Shown in pieces: positions 46,913 through 54,340 of a DNA stretch of 64,000 nucleotides (position 1 is its first letter; each line of letters begins with the position of its first letter). The translations under genes and the position numbers were made by a program. The notes below the pieces were generated by a model. The model did no database searches. It was given only the letters and a program-made list of their open reading frames with translations, and was not told where the DNA came from. The DNA comes from Dictyostelium discoideum (taxonomy: Eukaryota): assembly GCA_000004695.1 (NCBI GenBank), contig CM000155.2, forward strand, positions 1,856,001 through 1,920,000. Reading direction: 5' to 3'.

Positions 46913-47686
46913 ATGTCAACACCAACAAAATCATCAGGAGGTGGTAGAACTTATTGGTCTGATAATGAAGAAAATTATTTAAGAGAACAATATTTTCAAA
47001 TGAAAAAGAATGGAGAGAGAATTAATCATATAAAACTTTGTGACTTAATAAACAAAAAGTTTCATTCTGGTTCATCAATTCGTACTGCACAAGCAATAAA
47101 AAATAAATCACATGTTTTAGGTATTACAACACCAACATCAACACCAAATTCAACACCAACATCAACACCAAATTCAACACCAACAAAAAAAGAATATGAA
47201 AAAGGTATAGAAGTTAAAAAACCAGTTATTCAAAATATTAAAAATGTTGGTGATATTAATAATCAAGAAGATGAAGATGATGATGAAGATGAAGATGATG
47301 ATGATAATGATACCCAAACTGATGAAGAAGAAAGTGATAATGGAGAAGAGGAGGAATATTATGATGACCAAGAAGATTATGAATTTGAAATTAATGAAGA
47401 TGAGTTCAATCAAGTTAAAAATGAAAAAGAAAATGAAAAGGAGAAATCAGCTAAAAAAGTTTCACAAACAACCTCTGTTTCAATCTCAAATATGGATAAT
47501 AGAAATAGTGTACCTTTTCAAATTGAACTTCAAATCCCTTCAAAAACAAAAACAACATCAACAAAAACAAAAACAACAAAAACAACAACAAAAAGAGATG
47601 TAATATTATCAGAAATGGATTATCTAAAAAAAAGATTAGATTATTTGGATGAAAAATTGAAAAATTTAGATTTAAACTGTAAATAA
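46913..47686 (+). CDS. Myb/SANT-like domain protein with an acidic D/E tract and a conserved C-terminal YLKKRLDYLDEKLKNL motif (paralog A)
   Basis: MSTPTKSSGGGRTYWSDNEENYLREQYFQMKKNGERINHIKLCDLINKKFHSGSSIRTAQAIKNKSH is Myb-like. The track start at 46898 is a TTG. Confidence 0.6.
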   Translation: MSTPTKSSGGGRTYWSDNEENYLREQYFQMKKNGERINHIKLCDLINKKFHSGSSIRTAQAIKNKSHVLGITTPTSTPNSTPTSTPNSTPTKKEYEKGIEVKKPVIQNIKNVGDINNQEDEDDDEDEDDDDNDTQTDEEESDNGEEEEYYDDQEDYEFEINEDEFNQVKNEKENEKEKSAKKVSQTTSVSISNMDNRNSVPFQIELQIPSKTKTTSTKTKTTKTTTKRDVILSEMDYLKKRLDYLDEKLKNLDLNCK

Positions 47687-47937
47687 AATAAAATGAAATA
47701 AAAAAAAAGATATTATTTGCAATAAAATTAAATAATTTTTAAAATATAAATAAAATTAAAAAAAAAAAAAAAAAAAAAATTTACCCTTTGTTTTTATTAT
47801 TTTCCTGAATCGGAAACAAAAAACCAAAACAGGAATTTATCGATCAATCATTAAAAAGAGTAAAAATGAAAACTAAAAAAAAAAAATTAAATCAATTTGA
47901 ATTCCTTTTTTGGTTTATAATAATCTCATCCAAACCT

Positions 47938-47973
<36 letters not shown>

Positions 47974-48469
47974 GTAAAAAAGAAAAATTTTCTTTTTTAT
48001 TTTTCATTCATTAAAATTAATTCTAACAAAACAAATAATAAAAAAAATAAAAAAATAAACAATTACACAATGTATTAAAAAAAAAAAAAAACACAATTAC
48101 ATTATATTTATGAGTTAAAATAGTATTGTGAAAAAAAAAAAAAGTAAATTTTTTATAAAACATTATTTAAAATAATACTAATTGTTTTTTTTTATTTTTT
48201 TATTATTATTTATAAGAACAACTGAATTCCAAAAGTTCAAAGAAGATACACAATAATATTTGCTAATTATTCTTTATTTCAATTTAATATTATTTTTTTT
48301 TTTCAATTTCTTTTTATGTTTAATTAGAGGGTTTAAAGAGTATTACAAAGATTTTTACTCCAATGTATCATAATTGGAGGGGCATCATAGGTATAATAAT
48401 TTTTTTTCAACTTTTTAAATGATAAACAAAATAAAATCGATTAATTTCAATTTTATTTTAATCTTTTTG

Positions 48470-48683
48470 AATTGATTTAAAATTTTGTATTCTGGAGTTG
48501 TCCTTCTTTTACATTTTCATTGTACGCAGGGTGGTTTGAAGCCTTATCTTTCACATATGCAATGAAGCATCATTAGTAGGTGATCGTGCTGTAATCAGTT
48601 TAAGTGGGCAAAGTTGGGGAGTCAGACATGCCTCTCATCCTAATCGAGGAAACGACCGACCACTCCTCATTTACATTCTTTTT
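48470..48683 (+). ncRNA. Candidate small structured RNA (Pol III-type). A compositionally anomalous island of about 40% G+C, ending in a TTTTT run at 48679..48683.
   Basis: No ORF on either strand. Contains GGGTGGTTTGAAGCC and GTGCTGTAATCAGT motifs reminiscent of SRP-RNA Alu-domain elements (GGUGG, UGUAAUC), and CGAGGAAACGACC. Confidence 0.25.
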
Positions 48684-49791
48684 GAAAAAAAAAAGAAACT
48701 TCCAACATGTAGTATTAATTTATTATGTCAAGAGTTCGAAGGTAAATGTGCTAATTAGAATATTGTAATTCCTGGGTATTATCTCTTTTCAAAATCATAA
48801 AAAAAAAAAAAAAAAAAAAAAAAAATTAAAAAAAAAGAAAATTAATCAACCACCATTCTCTCTGCCTCTTATATGTAAAAAAAAAAAAACAACAACTCAA
48901 TCAATATGAAAATCAATCATTTTAAATATTGTCGTAATGAATGTTGTTTTTTAAATACTATAACACTTTTGTTTTTCACAAATTAGAATAATGTCACCTT
49001 CAAAAAAAAAGTAAGTATTTTTAATTTTTTTTTTTTTTTTTTAATAACTACGATTTACTGAAACTATAATAATTTTTAAAAATTCAAAATACCTTTTGTC
49101 ACATTAATGTTATTATATAGGCGAAGTGTGTTCTCAAACTCAAAAATAAAAAAATAAAAATCATTTCAAAGGTGTTTTTAACTATATACAGTCAATTAGT
49201 TCCTAAAACTTAGTTTCCAATAGTTTGGAATTTAAATTAAAAAATCTTTCAAAAAAAATTCTAATCAATTTTTAAATAAAAAACACTTTTAAACTGATTC
49301 ATCAAAATAATTTTTTTTCTTTTCTCTTTCTCTTTTCTCTTCTCTTTTAAAAGTATTAAAAATAATAACAGTATTAATAATAATAATAATGGTATTGCAA
49401 TAAAAAAAAAAAAAAGTTGAATATAAAAAAAGAGATATAAAATTTTTTTTTTTTTTTTTAATTTTTGGTGAAAAGCAGATAAAATCAGATTTATTTTATT
49501 TTTCTTTTCGGGCCAATATTGTAATTTGATTATTTTTTTAAAAAATTTCTTAAATTTTTACAAAATTTTTTAGAAAATTTCTTAAATTTTTAGAAATTTT
49601 TTTAAATAATATCTTGTTTGTAATTCTTTTTATAAATAATACTTTTTTTTTTTATTTTTTTTTATAAATTAAAAGAGCTCACAAATTTATTTTTCTCATT
49701 TATAATTTAACTTGGTATATAAATATTTTTTTCACATATTTTGTTTCTATTAATAATCTTATTTTTTATTTTTTATTTTTTTTTTTTGAAA

Positions 49792-50403
49792 ATGGCTAAA
49801 CCATGGTTAGATGAAGAAACCGAATATCTTAAGGAACTTTATTATCATCATTACCAAAAGAATAAAAAAGAAAAGATCAATTGTAACAAAATTACACAAT
49901 TAGTTAATGAAAGATTTGCAAATGATCGTTCACCCCAAGCAATTAAAGACAAGGCACATAGGTTAAAAATTTCCAAGAAATATGCAACTAAAACTGATAA
50001 TGATTATGATGATTATGATGATGATGATGATGATGATGATAATGATAATGATTATGATGGTAGAGATAATAATGAAGATTCTCAAAAAATAGGAAAAATT
50101 AACTTTGATGATCAAAATGTTAATGTTAAAGAAGAGATCTACCAACAACCTGTTAAAACAACAATCTCAGTATCAATCTTGGATGATAATAATAATAAAA
50201 ATAATAAAAATGAAAATTCAGTTCAAACAATAACAACAACAACAACAAAAAAACCAGAAATAGATACACCACCAATAACAAATGCAACTACAACAACAAA
50301 AAATTTAAAAAAATTAAAAAAAGATTCAATTGAAGTTGAAATTAAATATTTGAAAAAAAGGTTAGATTATTTAACAGAAAAATTGAATAATTTAGAAATT
50401 TAA
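49792..50403 (+). CDS. Myb/SANT-like domain protein, paralog B of 46913..47686 (acidic D/Y tract, C-terminal IKYLKKRLDYLTEKLNNL)
   Basis: MAKPWLDEETEYLKELYYHHYQKNKKEKINCNKITQLVNERFANDRSPQAIKDKAHRL. Same architecture and C-terminal motif as paralog A, 2.9 kb away on the same strand. Confidence 0.6.
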   Translation: MAKPWLDEETEYLKELYYHHYQKNKKEKINCNKITQLVNERFANDRSPQAIKDKAHRLKISKKYATKTDNDYDDYDDDDDDDDNDNDYDGRDNNEDSQKIGKINFDDQNVNVKEEIYQQPVKTTISVSILDDNNNKNNKNENSVQTITTTTTKKPEIDTPPITNATTTTKNLKKLKKDSIEVEIKYLKKRLDYLTEKLNNLEI

Positions 50404-50692: not shown

Positions 50693-52964
50693 ATGTTAAC
50701 TATTAAAAGATTACTTTTAAATCAAAACCTATTTAAAAGTAGTTGTAATTCCACAGGTATCATTTCAATTAATTACAATAGTAATAATAAAATTTGTTTT
50801 TTCAGTTCTTCTTCAACATTAATAAATAAAACTAATGAAATTTTAGATATTGAAGATAATAATAATAATAATAATGAAATATCATCATCACCATTATTTT
50901 TAAAAGAAACAATTAAAGAATTTAAATTAAAAAAAGAATTTATTGAAAAGTATTCAAAAAAGAAAGCACCATTTGGATTTGGAGTATTGGGTGAGATTGT
51001 ATATAGAAGAAGTTATTCGAGAGTTAAAGAGGATAATACAAATGAACAATGGTTTGAAACCGTTGAGAGAGTTGTAAATGGTACATATAATATTCAAAGG
51101 AAATGGATAGAAAGACATGGTTTAGAATGGAATCAAAATAAAGCTCAAAAATCTGCACAAGAAATGTATAATCGTATATTTGAAATGAAGTTTTTACCAC
51201 CTGGTAGAGGTTTATATTCTTGTGGTTCTTCAACTACTGAATCAAAAGGTTTATTCGCTGCTTTAAATAATTGTGCTTTCGTTAGTACATTAGATATTAA
51301 AAAGAATCCTTCAAAACCATTTATATTCTTAATGGATGCTTCAATGTTAGGTGTTGGTGTTGGGTTCGATACAAAAGGTGAAAATTCAATTATAATTAAA
51401 GGTCAATTACCACCACCACCACCACAACAACAACCACAACAACAACAACAACAACATGGTCAAAATAATAATATATTTATTGTACCAGATAGTAGAGAAG
51501 GTTGGGTAGAATCAGTTCAATTATTATTAGATTCATACTTTTTAAAAAGGAATAATCCAATATTTGATTATAGTTCAATTAGAAAAAAAGGTGAACCAAT
51601 TAAAGGATTTGGAGGAGTTTGTTGTGGTTATGAACCTTTAAAAGAATTACATGATGAAATTAGAGCTTTATTGAATAAATGTATTGGTAAACCAATTAGT
51701 TCAACAAATATTGTGGATTTAATGAATTTAATTGGAAAATGTGTTGTATCTGGTAATGTTCGACAAGCTGCAGAGATTGCATTTGGTGATCCAAATTCTC
51801 AAGAGTATATAGATTTAAAAAACTATCAAATCAATCCACAACGTGCTTCATTTGGTTGGTGTAGTAATAATAGTGTATTTGCAGAACTAGGTATGGATTA
51901 TTCAAAAGTTTGTCAAAGTATACTTCATAATGGTGAGCCTGGTTTAGCATGGTTGGATAATATGAAAGCGTATAGCAGAATGGTGCCAACCGAATTGGAT
52001 TATAAAGATCGTAGAGCAATGGGTGGCAACCCATGTTTAGAGCAAACTTTAGAATCTTATGAACTTTGCTGTCTAGTTGAAACGTTTCCCAACAATCACG
52101 AGAGTTTAGAAGACTATTTAAAAACTTTGAAATACGCATTCCTATATGCCAAAACCGTTACACTCGGTTCCACCCAATGGCCCGATACCAATAAGGTACT
52201 GCTCCGTAATAGAAGAATCGGATGCTCCATGAGTGGTATAGCACAGTTCATTCATTTCAATGGGTTGCATCAACTTAAGGATTGGTGTGTCAATGGTTTC
52301 AAGCTTTTGAATGAATTGGATGAGAAGTATTCCGAGTGGTTGGCAATACCGAAATCAATAAAGAGAACATCGATTAAACCAAGTGGCACTGTGTCGTTGT
52401 TGGCTGGTGCCACACCTGGCATGCATTATCCGATATCTGAATATTACATTAGACGTATAAGAATTCAAAAAGAGAGTAACCTAATTCCACCATTGGTAGA
52501 AGCCGGCTACCATGTTGAGCCAGCCTTTGAGAATAGTACCAATGTTGTAGTTGAAATACCCATTCATTCAGGTAAAGGTATTAGATCTGCAAATTCAATA
52601 ACAATGTGGGAACAATTATCATTAGCTTCTTTTCTTCAAAAATATTGGGCTGATAATCAAGTGAGTTGTACAGTCTCTTTTGATCCAATTAAAGAGGGTC
52701 CACAATTAAAACATGCCTTAGATTACTTTCAATATCAATTAAAAGGTGTATCATTTTTACCAAATTCTTCAACAACTACATCTGTTTATAAACAAATGCC
52801 TTATGAAGAAATTGATGAAACTCGTTACAACCAAATCATTGCTAACCTAAAACCTGTTGATTTTCAAAAGTTAAATAATTCCCCTTTAGAGCCTACTCCT
52901 GATAAATTTTGTGATTCTTCAAGTTGTACAATTGTTTCTGATAATTCTGAAACACTTAATAATT

Positions 52965-52969
<5 letters not shown>
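50693..52969 (+). CDS. rtpR: Adenosylcobalamin-dependent ribonucleoside-triphosphate reductase (class II RNR, monomeric Lactobacillus leichmannii type), single exon, 758 aa, with a presequence-like N-terminal extension
   Basis: ...FLPPGRGLYSCG...CLEQTLESYELCCLVETFPN...GCSMSGIAQF...SGTVSLLAGATPGMHYP...VSCTVSF... is collinear with RTPR. Dictyostelium is known to carry a class II RNR of bacterial origin. Confidence 0.85.
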
Positions 52970-53440: not shown

Positions 53441-53910
53441 CAAATATAAAAAAATATTGTAAGTATTTCACAGAAGTTTTTTTTTTGAATTGGATAACGC
53501 AATTATTATTTGCTTCTCCTTGAGATGCTAGATCTCATTTTATTTTATTTTTTTTTTGTTTACAGGGTCTCTAAAAGAGGGGTTGGTTTACCTTTTTTTT
53601 TTTTTTTTTTTTTTTTGTTTCGAATTTTGAATTGTATTATTACTTTTGATTAAAACATCTTTTTTGTCCAAACTTTTTTCTAAATCTTTTTTTATTTTAT
53701 CGTCTGGTTCGTGATTGATGTTTATGACGTATTTGAATTGTTTTTTTTTTAATTGAGTTTTATCCACAATTTCGCTTATTTTTTGTAGGCATTTGTGTTG
53801 CTTAATATTTATGGTGTTGTTTGTGATTTTCATCTTATTTTCTTTCTATTTTTTTTATTTTTCTTTAAAAAGTTAAAAATCTGGAAATTTTCTGATTAAC
53901 TTGGGTTCCC

Positions 53911-53970
<60 letters not shown>

Positions 53971-54340
53971 AAAAATGAAATAATCAAAAAAAGAGATTAT
54001 TTGTTTTTTTCATTTCACAGAAGTTTTTTTTTTTTTTGAATTGGATAACGCAATTATTATTTGCTTCTCCTTGAGATGCTAGATCTCATTTTATTTTTTT
54101 TTTTTTTTTTACAGGGTCTTTTTGATTAAAACATCTTTTTTGTCCAAACTTTTTTCTAAATCTTTTTTTATTTTATCGTCTGGGTCGTGATTGATGTTTA
54201 TGACGTATTTGAATTGTTTTTTTTTTAATTGAGTTTTATCCACAATTTCGCTTATTTTTTGTAGGCATTTGTGTTGCTTAATATTTGTGGGGGTGGTTGG
54301 GATTTTCCATTTATTTTCCTTCCATCCTTTTTATTTTTTG
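53441..54340 (-). mobile_element. Two truncated/rearranged TRE5-A copies. Each has the ORF1 5' end (about 170-215 bp), B-module-like sequence and a poly(T) tract, each flanked by a shared unique piece P (CACAGAAGTTTTTT..GAATTGGATAACGCAATTATTATTTGCTTCTCCTTGAGATGCTAGATCTCATTTTATTTT).
   Basis: 53621..53833 and 54121..54290 are near-identical to 55826..56038 (ORF1 N terminus MKITNNT(I/T)NIKQHKCLQK...). Poly(T) tracts at 53591..53620 and 53918..53976 mirror 56118..56166. Confidence 0.55.

Follow-up and report, generated by a model that had tools for sequence, protein, structure and literature searches.

In a 64-kb stretch of chromosome 6 of Dictyostelium discoideum (AX4 chr6:1,856,001-1,920,000; hereafter the window, whose numbering is used throughout), we identified a conserved intergenic element of ~480 nucleotides (nt) on the + strand (~48320-48798; AX4 chr6:1,904,320-1,904,798), lying between a Myb-like gene and its shorter paralogue DDB_G0292652. 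[quoted passage not shown] The most likely RNA strand is the + strand, which is also the direction of the flanking genes. An earlier sequence-only reading of 48300-48790 (chr6:1,904,300-1,904,790) had drawn attention to a compositionally anomalous, non-coding island at 48470-48683 and proposed a signal recognition particle (SRP)-like RNA made by RNA polymerase III (Pol III). A non-coding island, conserved in D. citrinum, was supported by our analysis, and action through an RNA from the + strand was judged most plausible, whereas an identity as an SRP-like Pol III RNA was not supported.

The compositional anomaly was borne out, as 48470-48683 (chr6:1,904,470-1,904,683) has 38.8% G+C against 21.6% for the whole window, with a peak of 0.44 in 100-nt windows over the island. 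The conserved element is wider than this segment and consists of three conserved blocks interrupted by variable, A/T-rich stretches. Its parts, and the motif just upstream of it, are as follows.

48292..48318, + strand: T-rich tract, candidate Pol II start-site motif (T11 at 48293-48303, then CAATTTCTTTTTAT, ending in G48318)
48320..48395, + strand: block A, conserved, 32-38% G+C, containing a perfect 7-bp hairpin
48379..48504, + strand: long imperfect hairpin (base helix 48380-48396 with 48485-48503, the spacer forming the distal part)
48396-48474, + strand: variable, A/T-rich spacer, 11-17% G+C, distal part of the long hairpin
48475..48683, + strand: block B, the island of the earlier reading, 36-39% G+C, with TTTTT at 48679-48683
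48684..48695, + strand: linker G-A10-G between blocks B and C, of variable length among orthologues
48696..48798, + strand: block C, conserved, 26-28% G+C, without indels

Block B carries small indels in its 5' half, and its core (~48610-48683), which occurs only once in the window, is the most conserved part of the element. A genomic A27 tract (48799-48825) directly follows block C. Two further intergenic stretches flanking the island (47800-47920 and 48920-48960) show ~80% identity to D. citrinum and G+C of up to 30%; they may belong to the island's own transcription unit or be separate regulatory elements.

Syntenic loci were located through the neighbouring proteins in D. cf. discoideum (L002), a second D. 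discoideum lineage (L003), D. dimigraforme (L004), D. citrinum (L005), D. firmibasis (L006) and D. purpureum (L007). The element is present at the syntenic site in the window, in D. cf. discoideum, in the second D. discoideum lineage and in D. citrinum (L005 8683-9236), giving four orthologues. The island in another strain (GCA_054883475.1, locus L001, 99.4% identical to the window) is identical to that of the window, and the strain comparison is uninformative.

We measured divergence between D. discoideum and D. citrinum against the neighbouring gene ndrJ, which differs at 29% of four-fold sites and 20% of third codon positions. The block B core (48610-48685) differs at 5 of 76 sites (6.6%; binomial p ~1e-6 against the four-fold rate) and block C at 10 of 95 (10.5%; p ~1e-5), with 12% divergence in block A (9/74) and 13% in block B as a whole; the p values of the blocks range from 1e-6 to 4e-4. 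The spacer has diverged by 34% and carries an additional 33-nt insertion in D. citrinum. The contrast is less marked among the three close lineages, whose blocks differ at 2-7.5% of sites versus 7-10% at third positions. Base composition has also been maintained: G+C is equal across all four orthologues, and polarised substitutions are balanced (S>W 5, W>S 7). Judged by these divergences, the element is under purifying selection between D. discoideum and D. citrinum.

These measurements bear on the possibility that the island is a functionless relic, namely a transposon fragment, a retroposed RNA with a genomic poly(A) end, or a dead gene. The A27 tract after block C, the lineage-restricted distribution and the deletions in the second D. 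discoideum lineage would suit such an origin. Random intergenic DNA of D. discoideum has ~13% G+C (PMC5295588), and the retained G+C and balanced substitutions of the element argue against a decaying sequence, as does a divergence 2- to 4-fold below that of four-fold sites. No similarity to any protein, transposon proteins included, was detected, the element is single-copy in the Dictyostelium DNA examined (the window and the 22-kb D. citrinum locus), and its core pattern has no exact match in metagenome, prokaryote or viral collections. We consider a relic highly improbable, and the transposon fragment, an identity that the earlier reading had named as counting against its proposal, gained no support.

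We next consider coding potential, for which the neighbouring genes and one open stretch within the island are needed.

46913-47686, + strand: Myb/SANT-like gene, upstream neighbour of the island
48568..48758, + strand: open stretch in frame +3, candidate last exon of a 318-amino-acid (aa) gene model, judged not to be a true coding exon
49792-50403, + strand: DDB_G0292652, shorter paralogue of the Myb-like gene, downstream neighbour of the island
50693-52969, + strand: ndrJ (DDB_G0292654), class II ribonucleotide reductase, after DDB_G0292652

The island thus lies between genes, as the earlier reading had stated. Its claim that there is no open reading frame (ORF) held only in the sense that no frame is conserved as coding: frame +3 runs open through 72 codons (48543-48758), closing with a TAG at 48756-48758, and a GTG-start ORF of 54 aa lies at 48604-48768. 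Moreover, GCA_054883475.1 is annotated with a gene for a 318-aa protein that runs from the ATG of the Myb-like gene to the TAG in the island (L001 7126-8967, corresponding to window 46913-48758). Only one canonical single-intron structure, joining 47678 to 48568 across an 889-nt intron, yields 318 aa, and 48568-48758 very likely corresponds to the last exon of that model. We enumerated 81 GT..AG structures for the annotated protein and looked up 11, none of which was on record; the 257-aa product of the plain Myb-like ORF was likewise absent from the protein collection, as were the 318-aa reconstructions looked up.

The open frame is not conserved. A 9-nt deletion in the second D. discoideum lineage brings an in-frame TAA into frame +3, and the linker is longer than that of the window by 4 nt in D. 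cf. discoideum, 11 nt in the second lineage and 5 nt in D. citrinum, so that every frame is broken. Compared with D. citrinum, block B has indels of 1, 2, 8 and 2 nt, and in the second D. discoideum lineage it has deletions of 1 nt and 9 nt. Searches with the open frames of the island on both strands found no Pfam family at E<=10, and the concatenated open frames of both strands had no match at E<=10 among 5.8e9 protein clusters. Because of the indels of lengths other than multiples of three, the in-frame stop, the frame shifts in the linker and the absence of a protein homologue, we conclude from this comparison that the island is not a coding exon. The orthologous Myb-like proteins of D. cf. 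discoideum, the second D. discoideum lineage and D. dimigraforme end at exon 1; given that the extension is missing from them and its frame is not maintained, the 318-aa model is almost certainly a mis-annotation that joins the Myb-like gene to the island.

The annotation nevertheless raises the possibility that the island is an alternative 3' exon or a long 3' untranslated region (UTR) of the Myb-like gene, with the blocks acting as mRNA regulatory elements. The public annotation covers 46913-48758, gene and island are on the same strand and similarly arranged in D. discoideum and D. citrinum, and the available catalogue of long non-coding RNAs (lncRNAs) drops gene-contiguous transcripts, which would explain the absence of a model at the island. 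Against this stand the lack of conservation of the coding extension (the in-frame stop, the frame shifts and its absence from orthologous proteins), the AATAAA signals and A-runs directly after the stop codon at 47686, and the acceptor AG at 48566-48567, which is changed in D. citrinum; an 889-nt intron would also be very atypical for Dictyostelium. An exon or UTR of the Myb-like gene appears improbable.

Several other coding candidates were rejected. An alpha/beta-hydrolase pseudogene, suggested by 'GQSWG' in frame +3, has no Pfam match, no protein homologue and no conserved frame. A small spliced gene with block A as an exon was dismissed on its donor AG|GTA, which is ATCTA in D. citrinum. 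A conserved micropeptide (MPLILIEETTDHSSFTF) shows mostly non-synonymous substitutions and a variable C-terminus, which is not coding-like, and a third, pseudogenic Myb-like copy is discounted by the absence of tblastx similarity to either paralogue.

Folding of the non-coding element revealed two hairpins in its 5' part. In block A, CUCCAAU (48358-48364) and AUUGGAG (48373-48379) form a perfect 7-bp stem around a loop at 48365-48372; none of the four orthologues shows a change in the stem, and substitutions (T>G and T>C) are confined to the 8-nt loop. Block A has a + strand fold z of -2.1 in D. discoideum and -3.3 in D. citrinum. In each of the four orthologues, the adjoining segment 48379-48504 takes the form of one long hairpin when folded as the + strand (z -2.70, -2.63, -2.84 and, for D. 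citrinum, -5.54), with none of 300 shuffles as stable as the D. citrinum hairpin. On the - strand the corresponding values are -2.05, -1.99, -1.00 and +0.09, so the + strand signal is stronger in every orthologue. The base helix contains up to four G.U pairs and two compensatory changes in D. citrinum (G-C>A-U and G.U>C-G), and pairing in the spacer is kept despite sequence turnover and the 33-nt insertion in D. citrinum. For comparison with the criterion of -0.2 kcal/mol/nt for microRNA (miRNA) precursors, the minimum free energy per nt of the D. citrinum hairpin is -0.235, and the values for the D. discoideum lineages are -0.183, -0.184 and -0.197.

No comparable signal was found downstream. 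Block B folded alone gave z of -0.5 to -0.1, and blocks B and C taken singly scored close to zero in D. discoideum and no lower than -1.8 in D. citrinum. A hairpin predicted in block C has one compensatory change in D. citrinum and two broken pairs in the window sequence, and stems drawn by hand in the core (GGGGAGU/ACUCCUC and CCUC/GAGG) are broken by D. citrinum substitutions. A long-range helix between GGGUGGUU and GACCACUC is invariant among the orthologues.

Regarding the polymerase, mRNA and primary miRNA (pri-miRNA) transcripts of D. discoideum start at a G that follows up to 26 nt rich in T (PMC6161686). The tract at 48292-48318, just upstream of block A, agrees with this motif, a weak criterion in an A/T-rich genome, and makes G48318 a candidate Pol II start site. 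A similar tract is present in D. cf. discoideum and D. citrinum and is deleted in the second D. discoideum lineage.

The evidence for a Pol III transcript was examined in the same way. Such an RNA would be a small structured molecule, ~200 nt long, with its 3' end at the T-run (48679-48683); block C would be a separate element. A G+C content near 40% is typical of Dictyostelium small RNAs, the invariant helix between GGGUGGUU and GACCACUC could close block B, and a run of T5 or longer is retained in all four orthologues. The TTTTT that the earlier reading took as a terminator is present, but T-runs are common throughout the genome, and conservation continues for ~115 nt beyond it through block C. 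Block B also folds like shuffled sequence in both species. The DUSE motif ([AT]CCCA[CT]AA, WCCCAYAA) has four matches in the window, of which the one at 34930 lies closest; the island has none in its vicinity. The B-box-like GTTCGAA (48735-48741) is GTTTGAA or GTTTGTA in the other three orthologues, and strings resembling an A box or a B box are either lost by deletion or not conserved. Candidate motifs for a box C/D or H/ACA small nucleolar RNA, and for Pol III A and B boxes, were incomplete, wrongly ordered or not conserved, and were set aside. A Pol III RNA is unlikely on these grounds.

A scan of the whole window against Rfam 15 at the gathering score, of the kind the earlier reading had proposed, found two tRNAs only and no SRP RNA, small nuclear RNA (snRNA), RNase P or MRP. 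At E<=10, the island and its D. citrinum orthologue gave scattered sub-threshold chance matches, none common to both species, and no SRP, snRNA, RNase P or MRP family was among them. An identity as SRP RNA, snRNA, RNase P or MRP was therefore rejected on scans of two species at both thresholds. The three motifs quoted by the earlier reading are all found (GCAGGGTGGTTTGAAGCC at 48526-48543, GTGCTGTAATCAGTTTAAGTGGGC at 48588-48611 and GAGGAAACGACC at 48647-48658). In the absence of an Rfam match and of a DUSE, however, the GGUGG and UGUAAUC strings likened to SRP RNA are best regarded as short, chance resemblances; TAAGTGGGC, part of the second motif, is deleted in the second D. discoideum lineage. 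At GAGGAAACGACC, where a GNRA-like hairpin had been proposed, there is no flanking stem to form one.

A different resemblance was seen on the - strand at 48612-48630, where AUGUCUGA-CUCCCCAAC (UGUCUGA-CUCCCCAAC) resembles the boundary motif and template of ciliate telomerase RNA; the + strand of this stretch contains GTTGGGG. Terminal repeats in Dictyostelium are A(G)1-8, and we know of no identified Dictyostelium telomerase RNA. Because the C-run of the candidate template is CUCUCC in D. citrinum, a telomerase-RNA-like variant is disfavoured; it is exceedingly improbable, and the likeness is probably a coincidence.

We then examined the distribution of the element. A profile built from the four orthologues detected a single copy in each of two sequences, the window and the 22-kb D. 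citrinum locus; the intergenic DNA at the syntenic sites of D. dimigraforme, D. firmibasis and D. purpureum gave no match. The comparison with D. firmibasis and D. purpureum that the earlier reading had suggested thus yielded syntenic DNA without the element, and conservation was clear in D. citrinum instead. A two-anchor pattern of the core had no exact match in metagenome, prokaryote-genome or viral collections, and horizontal transfer or wider conservation was rejected on that result. By its syntenic sites, the element appears to have arisen or been retained only in the D. discoideum/D. citrinum lineage. The earlier reading had named the absence of an Rfam match, of expression and of conservation in other dictyostelids as outcomes that would speak against it; we found neither an Rfam match nor a record of expression, and we did find conservation.

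The order of Myb-like gene, 650-700 nt and island is alike in D. discoideum and D. citrinum, and the gene downstream of the island is DDB_G0292652 in the former and ndrJ in the latter. DDB_G0292652 together with ~700 nt upstream of it (49085-50285) has no counterpart in D. citrinum. The locus contains one Myb-like gene in D. dimigraforme, one in D. firmibasis and none in D. purpureum, and from this comparison the Myb-like pair is taken to be young, fast-evolving tandem genes. In both D. dimigraforme and D. firmibasis, which lack the island, an (ATT)n microsatellite of ~200 nt adjoins the Myb-like gene (L004 10630-10830, downstream; L006 ~8650-8850, upstream of the start). The second D. discoideum lineage lacks ~253 nt just upstream of block A (window 48090-48342), the putative start-site motif included, and its copy may be degenerating.

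A number of observations count against a + strand non-coding RNA locus. The lncRNA catalogue of Rosengarten et al. (621 models from rRNA-depleted, developmental samples; PMC5295588) has no model within chr6:1,870,535-2,024,458 and none that names DDB_G0292652 as neighbour; it is one data set, and its pipeline filters on coverage and length and discards transcripts contiguous with a neighbouring gene. Two miRNA catalogues (PMC6161686, PMC11014262) have no entry at these coordinates and none with the hairpin-arm substrings tried. In public transcript assemblies (Logan), searched through the 54-aa ORF, no island ORF was called. The stability of the D. discoideum hairpin (-0.18 kcal/mol/nt) just misses the miRNA criterion, and the best-conserved part of the element, the core with block C, has no fold signal in D. 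discoideum, which fits a DNA-level element as well. Alignment-wide covariation amounts to 3 compensatory pairs of 106, a number reached by 7 of 500 shuffles; RNAalifold finds 3 compensatory pairs on the opposite strand also, and the covariation rests on four sequences, three of them close. Finally, three other dictyostelids have no copy of the element in their syntenic intergenic DNA, and the loss of the putative start site and the additional deletions in the second D. discoideum lineage suggest that the element may be dispensable. The locus is not mentioned in a de novo transcriptome paper, and a literature search with core substrings returned no papers.

Sequence conservation of the core and block C without a fold signal, and the lack of a catalogued transcript model, would equally suit a DNA-level cis-regulatory module (an enhancer, promoter-proximal element or insulator) of a neighbouring gene. 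GGAGGGG, GGGTGG, GTGGG, GTTGGGG and the palindrome CTCCAAT-N8-ATTGGAG would then be transcription-factor sites, for example of G-box/CAE type (GBF), and the 7-bp inverted repeat of block A could equally be a dimeric protein-binding site; Dictyostelium regulatory elements are usually G/C-containing boxes in A/T-rich DNA. However, an unbroken ~200 nt at 36-39% G+C, including 76 nt at 93% identity, goes far beyond clustered short sites. The hairpin signal differs between the strands and involves G.U pairs, which are meaningless in duplex DNA, and the hairpin potential of the spacer survives sequence turnover. The downstream gene, moreover, differs between D. discoideum (DDB_G0292652) and D. citrinum (ndrJ), and the element is missing from dictyostelids in which the flanking genes are the same. 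A regulatory module is possible, but we consider it rather unlikely, and we favour a non-coding RNA read from the + strand.

In the mechanism that we propose for this RNA, Pol II would start at or near G48318, after the T-rich tract. The 5' part of the transcript would fold into the small 7-bp hairpin and then the long hairpin of 126-161 nt, whose base helix would be held by compensatory change and whose distal part would be free to vary. The hairpin would be followed by the ~190-nt G+C-rich segment and ~100 nt of block C, and transcription would stop close to the A-rich tract at 48799. The hairpin may be a substrate for the Dicer-like protein DrnB, yielding small RNAs, or an element for the stability or processing of an lncRNA. 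Because the G+C-rich segment and block C are conserved in sequence and not in fold, they are suggested to be read by sequence, through a protein or base-pairing with a nucleic acid. More tentatively, the element may represent a new, selectively maintained RNA gene family confined to the D. discoideum/D. citrinum lineage, with a processed or stabilising hairpin and a body that binds a protein or pairs with another RNA or DNA. If so, it would be a young, lineage-specific regulatory RNA born beside a fast-evolving pair of Myb-like genes.

Elsewhere in the window, the following features were recorded.

14155-14535, - strand: lncRNA model of Rosengarten et al. (chr6:1,870,155-1,870,535), ~700 nt from a tRNA at 13424-13494
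16495-18375, + strand: DDB_G0292632 (chr6:1,872,495-1,874,375), agreeing in length and strand with a 1881-nt ORF
~53465-53937, 54012-54338 and 55828-56155: repeats of 220-330 nt with 94-100% mutual identity in the comparison with L001, upstream of a tRNA at 56886-56956

Beyond 56140 the window no longer aligns with L001, a sign of a possible transposon insertion polymorphism close to the tRNA gene.

The element was compared with four kinds of known locus. It resembles the Alu domain of SRP (7SL) RNA only in its GGUGG and UGUAAUC strings, a comparable G+C content and a terminal U-run. SRP RNA, with helices 2-4 in its Alu domain and helices 6 and 8 in its S domain, is a universally required gene, whereas the island lacks a covariance-model match, an S domain and a DUSE and, at the syntenic site, is not conserved across dictyostelids. 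With DUSE-dependent small non-coding RNA genes (Class I RNAs, snRNAs and SRP RNA) it shares the form of a G+C-rich island in A/T-rich intergenic DNA; it differs from them in having no DUSE ~60 nt upstream, no Class I motif, no terminal stem linking the 5' and 3' ends, and a much longer conserved unit.

The pri-miRNA hairpin loci mir-1176 and mir-1177 (Liao et al. 2018, PMC6161686) are closer in kind. They too are intergenic and single-copy, with an upstream T-rich tract and G, a long imperfect hairpin within a unit of a few hundred nt, A-rich tracts inside and after it, and counterparts in close relatives only. Unlike them, the island locus is not catalogued and has no known small RNAs, its hairpin in D. 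discoideum falls slightly short of the -0.2 kcal/mol/nt criterion, and its strongest conservation lies downstream of the hairpin rather than in the arms, a pattern that would be uncommon among miRNA genes. The intergenic lncRNAs of Rosengarten et al. (2017, PMC5295588) are similar in size class (median 628 nt), in location and in having G+C above background, but their median G+C is 17%, compared with 28-39% in the island blocks, and no model was reported at this locus.

In the A/T-rich intergenic DNA of Dictyostelium, G+C-rich islands have long served as guides to RNA genes. To our knowledge, almost all RNA genes found in this way are members of universal families or DUSE-dependent small RNAs, and we know of no description of cross-species constraint of this kind for the lncRNAs of Rosengarten et al. 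The present island stands outside both groups, yet it is constrained between two species and carries a strand-specific hairpin. If transcribed, it would be a rare instance, among social amoebae, of a non-coding RNA that is young, confined to one lineage and measurably constrained, and a concrete target for knockout and small-RNA analysis.

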